NCBI GenBank assembly: GCA_012862495.1
Contig: BLSG01000410.1
Span: forward strand, 135,558 to 199,557
Length of the DNA: 64,000 nucleotides
Source: Thraustochytrium aureum
Taxonomy: Eukaryota
Direction: 5' to 3'
Shown: positions 32,110 to 43,545 of the stretch, piece after piece
Layout: the number at the start of each line of letters is the position of its first letter
Numbering within the stretch: the stretch's first letter is position 1
Translations under genes and position numbers: made by a program
The notes under the pieces: generated by a model
What the model was told of the DNA's origin: nothing
The model's database searches: none
The model's input: only the letters and a program-made list of their open reading frames with translations

Positions 32110-35100
32110 GCGCGCAGGACGTGGCCTCCTCGGGGCGCTTGTCGTGGCGGACGCGCTTGAAGCGCGGGAAGCGCAGCGAGAGGCCCAGGTCGGATCCCGG
32201 CACGAGGCCCTCGGCGGCGCGGTGGTTTGGCGAGAGCGTGAGCTCTGCGGCGCGCACCTCCCAGACCTGGCTGGCGCGAAACCACGCCGAGGGGCGCAGC
32301 GTGCTCACGTAGTGCGGGGGCTGCCGGGCCAGCGTGCGGGGCTCGCCGTCGGCGTCGGCCGCCGCGAAGAAGGCGCTCTGCTCAGCGTAAAACTCATCCG
32401 AGAACCCGCTCATTACCTTGCAGACCGTGCGGAAGCACTCGGTGTCTTCGTCGTAGGCCGCGAGGAGGAACGGGGACCACCACTTGCTCTTGCGGCCCGA
32501 CCCGTGCCACGCGCCGATCACGACGAGGTCGACCGTGTCGCCCAGACCGCCGCCGACCAACCTCGCGGGGCCGAGTCCAGCGCCCGCCCCCGCCTCGCCG
32601 TCCTCCTGCTCAGCTTCGGCCTGCTCCTCAACGTAGTCTTGCTTGAGCTTGAGCCACGCCGTGCTGCGCTTGTTTGGCTCGTATGTGGCCTCGGCCGCGT
32701 CAAGCAGCTTGGCCATCAGCCCTTCGCACTTGGCGTCGAGCGACTGCTGCATAAACCCCATGACCTCCGCAGCGAGATGGCCGCTCTCTTCGGCGCCCTG
32801 CACCGCAGCAAAGTCGCGAGACTCGACTTGGCTGTACTTGCCGAGCAGCGGCTGAAAGTTCTCTGCAAGCAGCTCTCGACGCCTCCGCAGCGGCTCGTCC
32901 ACGAGCGAGGCCCCGTTCAGCTCGATCAGGTCGAACGCAAACACGGCAACAGCAACATTCTCGCCCGCAGGAAGGGCAACCGTTGCTGCTGAGCCCCGCG
33001 CGGCCTCGTTTGAAGCGGATGCGGCCACCGCGAGTGCTGTCGCAGCAGCTTCCGAGGGAACTCCTTCGCCGTTTCGGGACCGCGTGCTGAGTTGCTGGAA
33101 CGGCAAGATCGTCACCGTGTCCCCCAGACCGGTCAACGGCGACCACCTCGGCGTCCACAATGTACGAGCGAACGTTGGGCTTGGCCACAAGCTTCATTAT
33201 GGCTGCCACGTCAGGGAACTTTGCAGTGTTGCTCTTGCAGTGACGGCTAAAGATCTCAAACTCGCCGCTCGAGCAGAGGTGGAGCTGCACACGCTGTCCG
33301 TCGTACTTGAACTCGCAGGTAAAGGCTCCTTTGCCAGCAAACGCGTTGATAAACTCCGCTGCCCCATGGCACACCTGTGCCAGCATGGGGCGAACTGGCG
33401 TCCCCGGCGACNNNNNNNNNNNNNNNNNNNNNNNNNNNNNNNNNNNNNNNNNNNNNNNNNNNNNNNNNNNNNNNNNNNNNNNNNNNNNNNNNNNNNNNNN
33501 NNNNNNNNNNNNNNNNNNNNNNNNNNNNNNNNNNNNNNNNNNNNNNNNNNNNNNNNNNNNNNNNNNNNNNNNNNNNNNNNNNNNNNNNNNNNNNNNNNNN
33601 NNNNNNNNNNNNNNNNNNNNNNNNNNNNNNNNNNNNNNNNNNNNNNNNNNNNNNNNNNNNNNNNNNNNNNNNNNNNNNNNNNNNNNNNNNNNNNNNNNNN
33701 NNNNNNNNNNNNNNNNNNNNNNNNNNNNNNNNNNNNNNNNNNNNNNNNNNNNNNNNNNNNNNNNNNNNNNNNNNNNNNNNNNNNNNNNNNNNNNNNNNNN
33801 NNNNNNNNNNNNNNNNNNNNNNNNNNNNNNNNNNNNNNNNNNNNNNNNNNNNNNNNNNNNNNNNNNNNNNNNNNNNNNNNNNNNNNNNNNNNNNNNNNNN
33901 NNNNNNNNNNNNNNNNNNNNNNNNNNNNNNNNNNNNNNNNNNNNNNNNNNNNNNNNNNNNNNNNNNNNNNNNNNNNNNNNNNNNNNNNNNNNNNNNNNNN
34001 NNNNNNNNNNNNNNNNNNNNNNNNNNNNNNCTCCGGGCGCTGAACTTGCGCTTGCAACAGTTTTGCGCCGCTTGGCCGGGGGCGGGGGCGGGCTTGGCGC
34101 TGTCCGTTGCGACGGCGGCCCGCCACTGTTGCTGGCGCCCGCGCTGGCGTTGCGGGCGCTGCCGCATATTTCGCAGCACGAAGGCGAGCTCCTCGAATTG
34201 TTTTCAAATGTGCAGCGCGAGCAGGCCCAGGTGTCCGCCCGCTCTTTCGCCGGCCGCCCTACAACGGCAGGCGGCGGCGCAGCAGGTTCCTCCTCGCGGC
34301 GGCCGGGCGAGTCATGTAGGGCAGCCTCGACGAGATCGATGACCTCCAGCTTTGCGGTACTGTGCGAGCCAACCTGTTCGCCCTCCAACGGGCTTCGCTC
34401 GGGCTCCTTGTCGGCACCGGTAGCAGAGTCCGCCGCGCTCGCCGCCGCCTCGAAAGGCCTTTCCGGGGCCTCCTCAAAAGCCGCCCCCGAGCTTCTAAAC
34501 CCCTGGAAGAAGCGCTGCTTGCTCTTGCGGTCGTCGATCAGGTTTCGGAAACGGTGCACAATCGCCCTGTAGTGCTTCTGGTCCGAGAAGACGGTGGGCA
34601 CGACCTCGCGCGGCTTGAGGAACCCCACAAACTCTTCGAGCTCGGCAAAGTTGCTGTGCTCAGAATAGGCAACGATGTTGACGCTGATCGATCCAGAGTC
34701 GTCCAAGCGCACAGCGTTCCGCTTGTTGTAGTTTGAGGAGTGCGCCCAACCGGTGGGGATAAGCGCGAACACGCGGTCGAACTCGACGCCGCGCTCGCTC
34801 CGGAGCTGGTCCACGTAGGCGCGGACGTTCCCAAAATTGGGCTGAAAGTACGGCCAAATGGCCCCAACGGTGCCCATCGGGCACACGTGGACTGGTGCGG
34901 AGGGGTCGTCGCAGTAAAGGGCCATCTTTTCAGGCGGTAGGTCGAGGCATGCCATGACGCGGCGCTTGCGCTCTTCAAGATAGACGCGGCGAAATCCCAT
35001 CGCCTCGCAGAGCCCAAACACGACGCGCTCCTTGCCGATCGTGTAGGCCGAGACGAGCACCAACGTGCGCGCAGCAGCGTCTTGCTGCTGGAACGAGCGC

Positions 35101-35762
35101 AGCCCGTCCACGGCGCGCTGGATCGTCTCCTGCTGCGTGGGGAACACGTGATTCGGGTGCGCGTACGTGGTGTCCAGAAACACGGTGTCAATCCGGTGCC
35201 GCGCCTCAACGAGCGCTGGAACCTGCTGCATCTCTGGCGAGTAGCGCATATCTCCGCAGTGTAGGAACAGCGCGCCGTCGCTGCGCTGTACAAGTAGCAG
35301 TACAGCGCCGGGGCAGTGGTTGGCATCGATCAGCGTGACCTGAAAGCCCTCAAACTGGACGGGCTCGCCGAGCGGGTGAGGTTGCACGAGGTCGGCGCTC
35401 ACCTCCATTACCGAGACAAGCAGCGCGGCAGTGACCTTGGAGCAGTGCACAACGGCGTCCTTCCAGTCCTTGGAGAGCCCAGAGTAGTGGTCGCCATGAA
35501 AGTGCGAGAGAAAGCGAACGAGGCCCTTGCAGGGGTCATCGTCGCCAAGGTCCTGGTCCAGCCCCTCCTCCTCCTGCTGCTGCTCCTGCTCCTGCTCCTG
35601 CTGCTGCTCCTGCTCCTGCTGCTGCTCCTGCTCCTCCTCGGCCGCGGCCCTTCCCCTGCGACTGCGGCGCCGCAGCTCTTTGCGCAGCGCGGCGTTCGAC
35701 CTGAAGCAGTCCACGAGGCATCGCGTGCCGGGCACGAGCTTGGTCCTCAGCGCGCCATTCAT
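32110..35762 (-). CDS. LIG6: DNA ligase 6-like protein: SNM1/Artemis-type MBL/beta-CASP nuclease + RanBP2-type zinc finger + ATP-dependent DNA ligase
   Basis: FLSHFHGDHYSGL, DANHCPGA, HCGDMR, FLDTTY and YSEHSNFAEL (nuclease); WACSRCTFEN..CEIC; PVRPMLA, motif I EFKYDGQR, FDLIELNG, CEGLMAK, WLKLKQDY and SLRFPRF (ligase). Gap 33412-34030, extra G at 33121-33125, C-terminus in gap. Confidence 0.88.
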
Positions 35763-36122
35763 CCCTGCCCGCGGCTCGAGCGCGTACGCGGCGGGTGGCC
35801 TGGAGGCCGCGCCGTGGCGCCGGCTGCGCTCTCCGCCGCTACTCGCTGGCCGGCGCCTGCTGTCTGCCGGACGGGCAACGTGGGACTGCACAACGAGGCT
35901 GAGGGGTTGCTCAAGGACGTGGGCCCGCGGCGAGCTTCAATCAAGGCCGGTCGATTGGGATGGGATGGAGATGGATGGCATGGAGTTGGATCGGGCGGAT
36001 GCTGGTCGCTTTGTGGCGAAATGCGGGCGCAGATCTCGGCGTGGCCCGGGGTTTGTGCTGAAGGCTAGGTGGGCGCCGAGCGGTGCAGGTCGCGCGCTCG
36101 CGGGGCCGCTCCGCGGGTCGGC

Positions 36123-36599
36123 TTACTCGTAGACAAACATGTCCTGGGGGCGCTCGTACTTGTTGAGGCCCTCCGGGAACCAGAGCTCGATCTCAGCCTT
36201 GGCGCTCTCGACGGAGTCCGAGCCGTGGCACACGTTGCGGCCGACGTGGACGCAAAAGTCGCCGCGGATGGTGCCGGGGGCCGAGTCCTTCGGGTTGGTC
36301 TCGCCGAGCATGACGCGGCCGGTCTTGACGACGTTGAGGCCCTCCCAGACCATGGCAACGACGGGGCCCATCATCATGTACTCGATGAGGCCGCCGAAGA
36401 AGGGCTTGGAGGACAGGTCGGCGTAGTGCTTCTCGAGGTGGTCCTTGGTGGGGGTCACCATCTTGAGGGCAACGAGCTTGAAGCCCTTGGCCTCGAAGCG
36501 CGCCAGGATCTGGCCGACCAGGTTGCGCTGGACGCCGTCCGGCTTGATCATGATGTAGGTGAGCTCGCGCTCCATCGACTCGATCGAGGCACCGGCCAT
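36123..36599 (-). CDS. NDK: Nucleoside diphosphate kinase (group I)
   Basis: [34 protein letters not shown] and catalytic RNVCHGSDS. Confidence 0.97.
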
Positions 36600-37162: not shown

Positions 37163-40100
37163 TCACAGGATGATGCGGCCAAGCGCAGCCTCAAACTCCG
37201 CGACGTCCCAGCGCACATTGGAGAAGTCCATCCCCGTCGCCACCCAGCGGTCCATGAGCTCCCCAAAGTTCCACGGCCCAGAGCGGCCGAGCATGACTGG
37301 ATCCGACATAGGGTCGCCAGCAAAGCTGGTCAAGCTCGCGCTGACGCGCTTGTTTACTTTGGCTTGAGGCAGCTTGTCCCATGTGACGCGCCCTGCAAAC
37401 TCGAGGCGGAGTTGACGCTGCCACTCCGGCCACTGCGCGAGCCACACGTCGAGGTCTGCGTCGGAAATGGCCATAGCTTCCTCCCGCGCGACCGCCAGCT
37501 CGCGCTTCTTTATTTTGATGTAGGCCGGGAAGAGCATGTGCTGCGCGCTCACCGGCAGATCCAGGTCTTCGCGTAGGTCGATCTCGTACTTGAGGTAGAC
37601 GCAAACATCGTCCACGTCGCCGCCCATCTCGTCAATCTTGTTACGGGCGTGCCGGTGCACAATGTCGAGCCGCATAATCGCGTGCCCGAGCTCCCGCAGG
37701 GCGCGCTTGTCGCCACGCGCCTTTGCCACGCGCGTTGTGAGCGTAATCTGGTTGAGCGCCCAGATCGGCTTGTCCCCGCACCGATCGATAGAGTCGACCA
37801 TGCGCGTCAGGATCTCTTCGCGGGAAAAGTCGTCGTCGCGCAGCGTAGAAAAAACCTCGACCACGCGGCGGGCCAGCCCCTCCCGGGTCTCCTCGCGCTG
37901 AAACTCGGCCGCCATCCGCAGCTTGGACAGAAACTTGAGCACGTCGCCCAAGTAGTACTTTGGCACCAGGGGCGTGAGCTCGTGTGTCGCGCCCTCGTAG
38001 GCGGCGGCTTTTTCCCAGAACCGCACGGCGCTCTTCAGGTCGGCAAAACCGGCGCCCTCGTCCCCAATCACATAGTCGAATTGGTCGCCTTCGAACCAGT
38101 CCACCTCGTTTCCGCACTCGCGCGCTGCGGCCTCGAGCTCGACGAGGCGCTGCCGCGGGATGGACGACTCAGAGATCTCGATCGCACGGCAGGTCGCTGG
38201 CACGCTGCTCGACAAGTCGCGAAGATTTGGAAGGTTGCGGAGCAGCATGGACTCGCGGACGCGAAGCGTGTTGGTCGCCGGTCCGCTCGGCGGCGCGCCG
38301 ATGCGAGTCAGGCCGACGCAGTCTTCGACAGCGAGGCGGCGCCCGTGCAAGTTGTCTATGATCTGCAGACTCGGGCAGCTGCAGACGGTGACTCCGCGCT
38401 GTACGACTAGCGGGCGCGACGGGTCTTCGCCACCAAGCCGTCGCAATCCGCACCGCGTCAGCGACAGCTCGCCGAAGCGCAAGTTTGGTGGTATCGATTG
38501 CAGGCGCGGGCACAGGTCCAGGTCTAGCGCCTCAAGCCGGCCGGCGGCTGGGAGGACCGACAATGCGCGGCATCTGCTCAGCGTCCACGTGGGGAAGACC
38601 ATTGCGTCGGCATCGCCGTCCGCCTCGTCGCCGGGCGTAGCCCGGGCCAGAGGTGGGCTAACGTTGTCGTCCCGAAGCGCGAGTAAGCTCGCGCAAGCCT
38701 CAACAGTCAGCGACAGAGGCGCGTTTCCGGCCCCGAGCTCTGCGAGAAGGGAGCAGTGGCGCAGCTCCACGCTTCGCGCCTCGACTTTGGCTGGGAGCCG
38801 AGCCACGACGCTAACCGAGATGGTAAACTCCTCCGCAGCGCGACCAGTTCCTGGAGGCAGCTCGCGCACGCGCGGGCAGGCCTCCAACAGGAATCGGCGC
38901 GTCACGACGAGTCCCTTCGGAAGCTCGAGGCGGCGGCAGTGACTGACTGCGATGTCCTCGATTCGCTTGACGCCTGCAGGCAGCTTTGAGATGAGTGGGC
39001 AGTCGCGAAGCACGAGGGCCTCGCTCGGTAAGACGCGCAACTCGGAAAGAGCGGGGCAAAATGCAAACTCTGCGCGCTGCAGCGCGAATGCTCCGACGCC
39101 GCGTAAGTGCTCGCAGTACCTCGCAGAGAGGTAGCTCGAAACCCGCGCTTTGCTCGTCACCAACGCCTTGCACCGCTCAACAATGAGCACCTCGAGCTGG
39201 GCCTCCGCGACTTCGGCGACGGCATCGCAGGCTGACAGAATCAGCGCCGTCTTGGCCGCCCGTACGGGCACAGCCTTGAGGCGCGGGCATCGTTCCACTC
39301 GAACGGTGCCGGCCCGCACCTGGGCGTCTATCGAGGTAAGCTCGCGCAGCCCGATCAGGTGGACCAAGTCGAGGCCTTGCGTCCGCGACCGCGGTGTGAT
39401 TCGGATTGCGCTCACCGGCATGTTGTACACAACGAGGTGCTTGCCCACCACAACGTTCTTCGGGAGCGTTTTGAGGCGGGCGCAGTCCTCCAGCCACAGC
39501 ATTCCGTCCACAGTGAACTTGTCCACGTTGTCAAAGAATGCCTCGGCGCAGCCCACAAACTTGGCGTTGCCCAGGACGTGCACCCGGCGCGGAAGCACGA
39601 GAGGCTCCAGGGAGGGCCCGTCCCTCTGCGGCCGAACCACAAAGTCACCTTCGATGCGGAGCTCAGGAAACACCTCGCCAGCCTCTGGAGCCGCAAGCGC
39701 CGCAGCGGCGCGCTCCCGTCGCGATAGTGCCTCCAGCCAGTCAAAGAGGCGCCGAAAGGCGGGCAAGTCGGCGCGCTTGACCGGCCAGGCCCTGCGGAAA
39801 ACGCGCTCGAGCGCTCGCTGGTCGTCCATGCCGTCGCATGCGCGGGCTCGTGAAAAAGCAAAAAGGGCCTTGGCGGTAGCCTCGCCTACGCCGGTTGCGT
39901 CGAAACGGACCGCGGGCACGCGCTCCGACTGCATAAACATGTCGATAAGGTGCAGCGCCACGCCTTGGTCGACGTTTCGGTTGCCGGACAATATGCACTC
40001 GCGGATGTGCGGCGTCTTGGCGACCTCCTCGAGCAGCTGCAGCGTCTCGGCGCGGCTGTGCCGAAGTCCCGAAAGGTCGACGCCGCGCAAGCAGGGCATG

Positions 40101-43100
40101 TCGCGCGAGACGCTGGTCTTGCCCTTGTAATTCTTCGGTAAAGACTCCTTCGCCGCCCCCGGCGCAGCTCGCAGCGCCTCAAACAGCTTTGCGCAAGCCG
40201 CTAACGACAAGTGGCTCCCGCCCAGCCCAAGCCACTCCAGCCGTGGTGCCCCGCGCAGTGCTTGCAGCAGGTCGTCCAAATCGGCCGAACCGATACCAAG
40301 CCAGCCGAGATCGAGCCGCGTCAAATTGCTCGCACCCGACAATAGCGCCGCAAAGGCCGGTCCCATACGGGTGTTGGACCGCAAGTTGAGGTTGGCAAGA
40401 TGAGCAAGCTTGGGCCCGTTCGCCCCAAACCAAGTCGCGAGCGCCTCGCCGGCGTCGTTCTTCTCGAGCCGGAGACTCTCCAGCGGGGCCTCTGCCTCGA
40501 GGATGGCCTCGAGCAGCGCCACACACCCCGTGTCGCCGAGAAAGTTGCCACACGCGCTGAGAGACCGCAGCCGCGGAGCGGCGCGCACAACCTGACCTAG
40601 CTCGGCTCCGCCAACTGGACCGCATAGCCCGTTCTTGTCAACCACGAGGGACTCCAGCTGCCCGAAGACGTCGGAGAGCGCGCTGAGGCCAGACACACCT
40701 AGTGCATTGCCACGCACGTTAAGAGCGACGAGGTTAGGCGCCGCCTTCTTGAGGACCGGCACAAAGGCTTCAAGCTCGGCTCTTGGCGCTGCACCGAGGT
40801 AGTTTCCCTCCAGCGAGAGGTCGCGAAGGCAGCCGAGCGAGCCGTGGGCATCAGAAAGCAGGACGCGCAGTACGGCCACGGAGAGGCCGGTGTTCGCCAG
40901 ACTCAGTGAGCGGAGCGCGGGCTGGGCAGCGTTGTTCCCCAGCCCCGCTGGCAATGCTTTCGGAACCGGTTCGAGCTGCGAGTTGACCACCCAGCTGTGC
41001 ACGGACTGGTACGATGCATCCGGTGGGGCATGGACAAAGGCGCGCTGGCCCAAGTTGACCTCCAGCAGCGAGCCCTTGTGCGCAGAGAGCGCAGGTTGCA
41101 AGCCGGCCTGTATCTCCACGTCACGGAAGGCGACCCCATTCGGCGCGTCCCAGCTTCCCGCATATGAAAAGCTGATCTGGCCCGCCTCGATATCGACGGC
41201 GCAGCCCACGATTGCGCTGCGTCTCCTGTCGAACTGCTCGCCAAAGGCGACGCTTGCGCCGTCATGCCAAGCGAGTTGGCGCCCGCCGTCGAAGGCCCAC
41301 GATTTGTCAAAGTCGCCCACGCCGTGCGTCTGCGGCCACTGCTGCGGCTCGCGGTGAAGGCTGGCGTCGGCCCAACCGACCTGGAAGAGGCCGTGGGGTC
41401 ATGCGGCGCACAGCGACCTCAAAGTACCACTTCCCTGTGGTGAGGGCGATGCGCGAGTAAAACGCGGAGGGAAACCAGGCCGGCCCGAACGGGAGCATGT
41501 AGATCGTGTCGCACCCGCCACGCCCGGGCGACACGAGCGCTGAGCGCGTCTCGAAGTGGATGCCGTGCACGGTGCCCGACGCAGGCACCTTGCACAGCGC
41601 GAGCGAGACACCGACGCGCCCACTCACTCTTGCGCTAACCGCTCGACCGCTCGTGCGAGCGCCGCGCAAGAACGCGAGCGATTCGAGGAGGTCTGCCCCA
41701 TGATGCAAGTTGACCCGCCCGCTCTTCTCGAACGCTTCGCGTGCCTGCTTGACGTTGGATTGGAAGGTGGCTTCTCTGTCGGCAAGGTCCTCCTCCGCGC
41801 TCGCGACATCGAGGTGGAGCGTGAGTGGGCCGGTGCTCTTCACGTCGCCGCTCTGGCCAGCTCCGTTCTCGAGCGGGTCGGCGTCCTCCCAGATGCCATC
41901 TTCCCAAGCGTCGTCCGCCCCGGCGGCCTCGGCGGCGAGAAGAGCATCGCTTCCGTTGAGCGAACCGCTATTGTCTCGGTTGAGCGAGGCTGCGCCGTTT
42001 GGTCCCGCTGCGAATCCGTACGTCTCTTCAAAGTTTCCAAGCTCCGAGACGGGGTAGCCAGGCAGGACTGTGCGCGCGCTGCGCCGCGCAAACAACCCGC
42101 GGACCTTGCGCATGAAGGGAATTGGGCCAGTTCGCCGGCGGTCCGGGGAGCCCTCGTCCTGCTTGCTTTCCACAATCATAGACTCTGCCACGTACTTGTC
42201 GACGTCATACGTGACGAAAACTGGGCCTTGCTCCACCGAGCCGCGGCAGGCGCACATCAGGTCATTGCAGGTCTCGAAAACGTCGTCAGCAGCTCCGGTC
42301 GCCCCGGTCGCCCCAGTCGCTTGCGGGGAGCTTTGTGGGCGCTGGCCGGCTACCGGTGCCTCCGGGCCTCCCCGAGGCGCCGTCCCGCTCACTCGCGAAG
42401 CTCGCTGCGAGGTTGGCGCCCGGACCGGCGAAGCACTAGCATGAGGTTCACCCTCGTCCTCTTCGTCGATGTCCGGGAGCACCTCTGTCCGCGCTGCAGC
42501 GCTGACTGGTGGAGCATTAGCAATGGCAAAAGGTTGCGCCGCGGCTGGCTGTAGTTGGGGCATCCGTCCCAGCTCTCCTGGTACCTCGTCAACAGCTCCA
42601 GCTGCTGCCGCCGCTTCCACCTCGGCGGAAATCACGTCGGGGGCGCCGAGCAGGTTGGATGAGCGGCGCAACTGGCTCACTCTTTGGATATGCAAAAGAG
42701 ATCGACGCACCCGGAGCTGGTCGCTGACGCTCGAGCTTGCACGCCTGCTCCGGCGTCCTGCATTGTCCTCGAGCGGCGGCTCGCTCCCGCCGCCCTGCTC
42801 TTGGAGAGGAGGCGCTCCCTCGCCTTCGCTCGGGCCAAGGCCGCGCTGGGTCGCAGCGGTGTCTGGCTCAAGGGGCGCCGCCACGGTCGGGTTCGGGTTC
42901 GCTTGGTCCTCCGCGCGGGCTGGGCGGCTCACCAGCGAATCCCTTCGCCGCGACGGCGTGCGCTCACGCGCTTCAACACCGTTGCTAGCAGCGTCCTCGC
43001 CGCTCTCGGCGGCATGGCCGCCTCCCGGGGGCTGCACGTTCGATATGGACCCGCTGCGGCTCCCGCGGGCGTCGGCGCGCCGACTGAGCCCGTCTACTCG

Positions 43101-43167
43101 CCCGCCGCGGCTCTCCGAGGCTATTTCTAGCGTCCCGCGTCCCGCCAGGTTGGCTGTCCCACTCCCC
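37163..43167 (-). CDS. SPRY + RI-type LRR + second LRR array + NEL-type (IpaH/SspH family) E3 ubiquitin ligase + U-box-like tail; 5' end in gap
   Basis: SPRY: GKWYFEV..HGLFQVGWAD..GVGDFDKSWAFDG..IVGCAVDIEAGQISFS (one extra C at 41395-41398 joins the two ORFs). RI-LRRs LRSLSLANTGL and LRDLSLEGNYLG. LxLxxCxxLxxLP repeats. NEL motifs FLSKL, DSIDRCGDKPIWALNQI, LRELGHAIMRLDIV, VDDVCVYLKYEIDLREDLDLP..HMLF and WLAQWPEWQRQLR. Confidence 0.85.
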
Positions 43168-43489
43168 NNNNNNNNNNNNNNNNNNNNNNNNNNNNNNNNN
43201 NNNNNNNNNNNNNNNNNNNNNNNNNNNNNNNNNNNNNNNNNNNNNNNNNNNNNNNNNNNNNNNNNNNNNNNNNNNNNNNNNNNNNNNNNNNNNNNNNNNN
43301 NNNNNNNNNNNNNNNNNNNNNNNNNNNNNNNNNNNNNNNNNNNNNNNNNNNNNNNNNNNNNNNNNNNNNNNNNNNNNNNNNNNNNNNNNNNNNNNNNNNN
43401 NNNNNNNNNNNNNNNNNNNNNNNNNNNNNNNNNNNNNNNNNNNNNNNNNNNNNNNNNNNNNNNNNNNNNNNNNNNNNNNNNNNNNTGCC

Positions 43490-43490
43490 G

Positions 43491-43537
<47 letters not shown>

Positions 43538-43545
43538 CTGCCTGC
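43490..43545. repeat. (GCCT)n tetranucleotide microsatellite upstream of the SPRY-LRR-NEL gene
   Basis: About 12-13 copies of gcct. Confidence 0.95.

Follow-up and report, generated by a model that had tools for sequence, protein, structure and literature searches.

The described ubiquitin ligases of the NEL class (PF14496), namely IpaH, SspH1, SspH2, SlrP and NopM, are effectors of bacterial type III secretion systems (T3SS) in which leucine-rich repeats (LRRs) lie upstream of a helical core that carries a CxD motif and a second aspartate. In these enzymes substrate binding relieves autoinhibition, and ubiquitin passes from a ubiquitin-conjugating enzyme (E2) to the CxD cysteine and on to a lysine of the substrate (PMC9320238). 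The catalytic set of IpaH9.8 comprises the CxD cysteine, Asp339 and Asp397 (PMC9320238, section 3.3), and NELs have been called exclusive to pathogenic or symbiotic bacteria (PMC9320238). Here we describe a NEL ligase gene from the thraustochytrid Thraustochytrium aureum, located in a 64,000-nucleotide stretch of contig BLSG01000410.1 (positions 135,558 to 199,557; assembly GCA_012862495.1) that we refer to as the window and whose own numbering is used throughout. The encoded protein has the helical core, CxD motif, second aspartate and upstream LRRs of the T3SS effectors, but it is the product of a eukaryotic nuclear gene rather than a protein secreted by a bacterial T3SS, it ends in a U-box-like tail without a helical thumb, and it contains additional SPRY and ribonuclease inhibitor (RI)-type LRR modules. 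Judged by its sequence relationships, it belongs to an unrecognised eukaryotic NEL family.

A NEL-like alien domain has been reported in green-algal NLRs; in the accessible part of that account, the domain derives from an LRR superfamily assignment and is not evidently a catalytic NEL (PMC7145615). Neither eukaryotic NELs nor NEL-U-box fusions are described in the accessible parts of three further papers (PMC7029713, PMC11800578, PMC12591485), and full-text literature searches, outside which most subscription papers and supplements fall, returned no thraustochytrid or other eukaryotic NEL family and no NEL-U-box fusions. The ligase is apparently an undescribed, eukaryotic and expanded variant of the NEL family that does not belong to the classical IpaH/SspH type; against the NCBIfam models for IpaH (33.7 bits, cut-off 550) and SlrP it falls far short of the cut-offs.

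The catalytic core and the C-terminal tail

An open frame at 37163-41398 on the reverse strand holds every NEL motif quoted in an initial annotation of the window, which had compared this protein by eye with IpaH, motif by motif. That comparison was borne out: the phmmer alignment reproduces it, and the Pfam NEL profile matches residues 1153-1335 of the frame (E 3e-28; 99-103 bits, cut-off 24). When the last 320 residues were searched against the PDB, IpaH, SspH and SlrP made up the top 12 of 15 matches (E 1.3e-7 to 3.3e-4), with the alignment to IpaH-type NELs stopping at residue 246 of 320. The fold of the last ~300 residues points the same way, as the predicted structure (pLDDT, the predicted local distance difference test score, of 92) contains an all-helical NEL core and its best matches are SspH2, SspH1 and IpaH; prediction from the single sequence gave a pLDDT of only 36.

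The CxD motif is intact, as had been claimed, and its cysteine and aspartate are present in 86 of the 90 eukaryote-type sequences assembled below, the remaining four being gaps. The second aspartate, which counting along the phmmer alignment makes the equivalent of Asp397 in IpaH9.8, is retained in 88 of these 90 sequences and replaced by glutamate in two. Three residues beyond it lies a further cysteine found in 70/90 eukaryote-type sequences, at a position occupied by glutamate in 63/65, 8/10 and 74/74 members of three bacterial sets; one might speculate that this cysteine is a relay or redox site. The protein contains a genuine NEL domain with an intact Cys/Asp/Asp triad, and it is likely to be an active cysteine ligase.

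Where classical NELs have a helical thumb that binds E2~Ub, the last ~65 residues of this protein are instead modelled with strands. The tail model matches the structures of AvrPtoB, Prp19, RNF4, UBE4B, Ufd2, LubX and CHIP, and a transitive profile link connects the tail to U-boxes through the tails of bacterial relatives, every single score being modest. Both structure and transitive profiles point to a zinc-free, RING-like fold with detectable homology to solved U-boxes, although the Pfam U-box profile (PF04564) does not match the ligase tail, and the best bacterial tails reach 15-16 bits against a cut-off of 21.4. An ESM Atlas query returned only unrelated clusters, scoring under 0.8. We regard a U-box-like fold for the tail, as modelled, as highly likely. 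The initial annotation had described NEL ligases as structurally unrelated to HECT and RING enzymes, which needs correcting here: the catalytic unit is not a plain IpaH-type NEL, and its C-terminal subdomain is predicted to adopt a U-box/RING fold. That fold would be common to the tail and to the U-box ligases (Prp19, UBE4B/Ufd2 and CHIP, and the bacterial LubX, AvrPtoB and NleG). Those enzymes have no catalytic cysteine, whereas the U-box of the present ligase is degenerate and joined to a thioester-forming NEL core.

The predicted architecture makes it reasonably probable, in our view, that core and tail operate jointly as a cytosolic, cysteine-dependent hybrid E3. The SPRY domain and the two LRR blocks would bind the substrate, the core being kept inactive up to that point as it is in bacterial NELs; the U-box would dock a UBC4/5-type E2~Ub where IpaH and SspH have their helical thumb; ubiquitin would pass to the CxD cysteine as a thioester; and the two aspartates would help to pass it on to a lysine of the substrate, which would then probably be degraded by the proteasome. 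A RING-type E2 dock that feeds a catalytic cysteine is present in the RBR ligases Parkin and HOIP and in the RCR ligase MYCBP2, whose logic resembles the one proposed here. The thraustochytrid ligase, in contrast, lacks an IBR/RING2 or tandem-Cys zinc domain and has an unrelated NEL core placed N-terminal to the dock.

On the predicted E2-binding face of the tail, the loop-1 hydrophobic residue is kept, and the loop-2 proline and the linchpin arginine are changed in the eukaryotic clade. Loss of the arginine would fit a dock serving transthiolation rather than direct transfer. Alternatively, these changes, together with the missing Pfam U-box match, could indicate that an otherwise active NEL ligase carries a vestigial or structural U-box-like domain, used for dimerisation or for core packing in the manner of Prp19-type dimers, and receives E2~Ub on another surface. 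This is unlikely, because the tail is kept in 88/90 eukaryote-type and 63/65 bacteria-type sequences with a conserved P-V, W and G, and because it sits exactly at the site of the E2-binding thumb of classical NELs in a protein with no other thumb. Prediction of a complex between the NEL core plus tail and a stand-in, metagenomic UBC4/5-type E2, run twice with alignments unused, gave a score of 0.00, which speaks neither for nor against binding.

A eukaryotic family and its bacterial relatives

Searches for relatives returned 19, 10 and 150 listed proteins; of 160 proteins matching the domain profile, the 155 whose match spanned 170 columns or more were retained. By motif they fall into a eukaryote type (CxDKP/DDVC; 90 sequences, including this ligase) and a bacteria type (CxDR/DEIE; 65 sequences), the labels having been set by motif and rank, with one protein (P0104) shifted to the former group afterwards. 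The initial annotation had called for eukaryotic homologues to be placed in a phylogeny, and this yields a single eukaryotic clade of ~90 members, supported at 100/100 in a tree of core columns. Named members come from Hondaea fermentalgiana (at least six proteins), Thraustochytrium sp. LLF1b and Mucochytrium quahogii, with one more labelled Durusdinium trenchii, and several are on record from culture transcriptomes. The taxid attached to one transcriptome entry (87120) pointed to a fungus and was disregarded. Their N-terminal modules vary: SPRY with LRRs occurs in 9 of 48 proteins scanned, and others have ARM repeats, TPRs with a kinase, SAM domains or LRRs only.

Hondaea members (P0005, P0006, P0011, P0017, P0019 and P0045) appear in databases under the wrong names of ryanodine receptor, disease-resistance protein, importin alpha, LSm1 or nephrocystin-3, so that the family is hidden there. 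Automatic names elsewhere read 'NEL domain-containing protein' (Mucochytrium) or are of IpaH/SspH type (CAK entries); the sequences are publicly available, though apparently no study has dealt with them. The Durusdinium-labelled protein (P0009), from an 11 kb contig, groups with a Hondaea protein (99/84), and represents either thraustochytrid contamination of that assembly or a real dinoflagellate copy. P0104 (CAK9086939.1) pairs a catalytic motif of bacterial type with a tail of eukaryote type and lies outside the main clade. Two further, unnamed proteins (P0101 and P0105) belong by motif to the bacteria type and have eukaryote-looking N-termini; the three could represent second transfers.

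A scan of GTDB genomes, from which 79 loci were kept among the best 80 of 224, separated two kinds of bacterial NEL. Matches in IpaH, Salmonella, rhizobial and Pseudomonas proteins end before the tail, whereas those of the first eight loci in the ranking (L001-L008) run through it; these loci come from a Rhabdochlamydiaceae metagenome-assembled genome (MAG), from a MAG labelled 'Verrucomicrobiae' and from an uncultured genome within a Chlamydiota sample. The accessible part of a 2022 review of NELs names only genera of Proteobacteria. Among Chlamydiota, 74 of 300 genomes searched contain a NEL, with up to nine scored matches per genome, and the U-box tail is present in 7 of the 30 best loci and absent from the other 23. 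Bacterial LRR-NEL-U-box genes include L001-L008, L080-L083, L086, L088 and L103, with tandem copies in one MAG, and one of them (L004) directly follows an SctV-like T3SS gene. No description of such genes was found in the full-text literature searches.

These bacterial proteins (from the L001 MAG, the Chlamydiota genomes G003, G042, G144, G151, G224 and G233, and the 'Verrucomicrobiae' MAG, together with ~65 unnamed proteins) have the three-part module and the tail in common with the ligase, to which they are ~25-35% identical, and they lie on its side of the core tree. They differ from it in having CxDR and DEIE-type motifs where it has CxDKP and DDVC, in their length of 500-800 residues and in lacking SPRY, ARM and TPR modules; they are probably injected effectors. 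The LRR-NEL-U-box module is absent from all 74 classical NELs. The initial annotation's proposal of a bacterial-effector-type enzyme thus holds at the level of the NEL family, but the nearest bacterial relatives are Chlamydiota and unnamed NEL-U-box proteins and not IpaH, SspH or NopM. A VxG-type LRR adjoins the NEL in 35/64 eukaryotic sequences and in 35/43 and 7/7 bacterial U-box sequences, compared with 1/60 classical ones, 28 of which have S-type repeats. Because the eukaryotic and bacterial U-box sets have this LRR class in common, the LRR-NEL-U-box module appears to have travelled whole.

The core tree, from which the tail was excluded, comprised 231 sequences, 201 after dereplication at 85%, with 64 hand-picked for a careful tree. 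Classical NELs were separated from all others with 96/83 support. None of 200 bootstrap trees recovered the bacterial U-box group as monophyletic, yet its monophyly was not rejected by the approximately unbiased (AU) test (p 0.42). In a second, quick tree the eukaryotic clade joined unnamed U-box proteins, not the named Chlamydiota, at an unstarred node (87). No named donor could be retained. Of the two possibilities raised in the initial annotation, an unrecognised eukaryotic family and horizontal acquisition, the former stands, while the direction of transfer is not established, given the AU result.

From the distribution of NELs, a bacterial origin of the eukaryotic family, and transfer from bacterium to protist, appears likelier. 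Bacteria hold a far greater diversity of NELs, and the named eukaryotic members are Labyrinthulomycetes save for the Durusdinium label, which itself groups with Hondaea. The converse, in which NEL-U-box proteins are ancient in eukaryotes or arose there and were then passed to intracellular bacteria or lost from most eukaryotic lineages, could draw on the eukaryotic nature of the U-box fold, on the unrejected bacterial monophyly and on the hint of wider spread given by P0104 and the dinoflagellate-labelled protein; set against the distribution and the 200/200 bootstrap trees, we consider it improbable. Under the favoured bacterial origin, an effector gene of LRR-NEL-U-box type would have passed once from an intracellular bacterium with a T3SS to a thraustochytrid ancestor, and duplication and fusion to SPRY, ARM, TPR and SAM modules would have followed. 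A viral carrier of the eukaryotic-type NEL was not found (0 of 31 pattern matches confirmed); bacterial-type NELs were confirmed in 49 of 74 pattern matches in the viral search, all ending before the tail. A BFVD fold search gave no match at E <= 0.001, and records of mobile elements with a NEL comprised one weak phage and two plasmid cases.

Gene architecture and genomic context

Features of the ligase gene and its neighbour in the window
Feature	Position	Strand	Evidence or detail
Neighbouring nucleoside diphosphate kinase (NDK) gene (context)	36123..36599	-	PF00334 E 1.3e-56
Stop codon	37163..37165	-	
Degenerate U-box/RING-like C-terminal domain, predicted, in place of the E2-binding thumb of IpaH/SspH	37166..37357	-	model residues 257-320
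NEL catalytic core	37394..38044	-	
Second catalytic Asp (37610-37612) and eukaryote-clade-specific Cys three residues on (37601-37603)	37601..37612	-	
CxD motif: Cys 37778-37780, Asp 37772-37774	37772..37780	-	aligned to IpaH9.8 CxD
Second LRR block, Cys-containing repeats	38129..39601	-	12 LxxCxxL-type repeats, 1 clear VxG-type repeat
RI-type LRRs	39899..40921	-	ribonuclease inhibitor E 4e-12; NLRP7 E 9e-4
SPRY, with a one-base frame break at ~41395 (probable assembly error)	41042..41432	-	PF00622 E 4.5e-14
5' coding part, low-complexity N-terminus into pre-SPRY segment	41433..43167	-	last ~105 residues match P0004 452-547, E 1e-13

The fusion to SPRY and RI-type LRRs seen in the initial annotation is real. 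The SPRY domain exceeds its Pfam cut-off (53 bits against 26.3) and matches that of the ryanodine receptor (E 4e-10). The repeats of the second LRR block are degenerate versions of the LPxxLxVxGxL-type repeat found ahead of the NEL in the family. As in known NEL ligases, potential substrate-binding LRRs thus lie upstream of the core, here in two blocks of a class unlike that of IpaH and SspH. No 19-residue hydrophobicity window exceeds 1.6 in the ligase or in two relatives, as would suit a protein of the cytosol.

In the window, the gene changes frame within the SPRY domain, near 41395. Each of four sequencing runs, drawn from three studies, shows a one-base difference from the window at this point, and an orthologue (P0004; 1941 residues, 43% identity over 1424 columns) is continuous across the break: one window frame aligns as far as its residue 547 and the other picks up at residue 548. 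Because the runs and the orthologue read through, the break is probably an assembly error; an intron was considered and dropped, since both show a one-base difference and no skipped stretch. A second one-base length difference, at 43089, distinguishes the window from two of the four runs. The 5' end of the frame meets an N gap at 43168, placing the start codon beyond the visible sequence, and a (CTGC)n microsatellite at 43487-43545 adjoins this gap.

The NDK gene, which has human NDK A/B among its best PDB matches, starts 563 bp beyond the ligase stop codon, in agreement with the ~560 bp first estimated. Scanning 30 frames of the window revealed eukaryotic neighbours, including Hobbit, a midasin-type AAA protein, DRMBL plus ligase, ankyrin, a UAA transporter, a cathepsin, Hus1 and a dual-specificity phosphatase. 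The host-like base composition initially noted is seen in the G+C content at third codon positions (GC3), which is 0.82 for the NEL and tail, compared with 0.82 and 0.81 in two correctly framed neighbours. Together with the eukaryotic clade, these neighbours and GC3 values all but exclude a bacterial contaminant. On the reverse strand at 32117-35936, one gene seemingly joins a DNA-repair metallo-beta-lactamase (DRMBL), a RanBP2-like zinc finger (identified by eye) and an ATP-dependent DNA ligase across an N gap, a layout known from plant DNA ligase 6.

The frame break, and the lack among the contigs listed of a single one bridging the NDK gene and the NEL stop, might suggest contamination, a chimeric assembly or a pseudogene. 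Apart from the runs reading through the break, read depth in run X1 is present in 30/30 bins from the ligase neighbour through the NEL gene, the eukaryotic SPRY and RI-type LRRs lie in one open frame with the NEL, and orthologues and paralogues occur in several assemblies. Selection also appears to be purifying: in run X2, 32 of the 40 listed differences from the window are synonymous (25.6% expected; p 9e-13; 62 further differences lie beyond those listed), as are 27 of the 35 listed for the LRR part, where change is purifying and not diversifying. Such artefacts are already largely refuted and have only the slightest probability; this is a real, intact nuclear gene for a protein of ~2000 residues. 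In runs X1-X3, loose ends or joints occur at 37213, 37395-37432 and 37774, where other contigs match only conserved NEL stretches and then diverge, one of them spanning the catalytic motif. These contigs, to judge by their partial matches, probably derive from further NEL paralogues in the same organism.

Possible role and significance

TRIM proteins pair a SPRY domain with an E3, and the present ligase resembles them in this respect. This likeness, and the at least six Hondaea paralogues with varied sensor-type N-termini, would suit a role in innate defence, as the initial annotation proposed, in which SPRY and LRRs detect proteins from intracellular bacteria or viruses and cause these to be ubiquitinated. 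Such a role would be compatible with the hybrid mechanism, but it was not established: an orthologue matches the gene over its full length at 43% identity, the LRRs are under purifying change, the presence of relatives in culture transcriptomes fits constitutive use, and no defence genes were found among the scanned neighbouring frames. Since this member is conserved and not fast-evolving, we regard the defence role as doubtful.

Taken as a whole, the picture of a further class of eukaryotic cysteine E3s, in which a NEL-U-box effector of chlamydia-like bacteria was captured once by thraustochytrids and elaborated into modular sensor-ligases, possibly with a second-cysteine relay and possibly directed against invaders, is offered tentatively. 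A conserved and expanded eukaryotic NEL family overturns the view that NELs are exclusive to bacteria, and it would provide an example of a bacterial effector enzyme being domesticated within a host lineage. If a U-box has replaced the thumb, the dock for E2 on NELs would be exchangeable, and two ligase classes thought to be separate would be joined, both in protists and in environmental Chlamydiota. Because thraustochytrids can be cultured and manipulated genetically, the mechanism and role of the ligase are directly testable.
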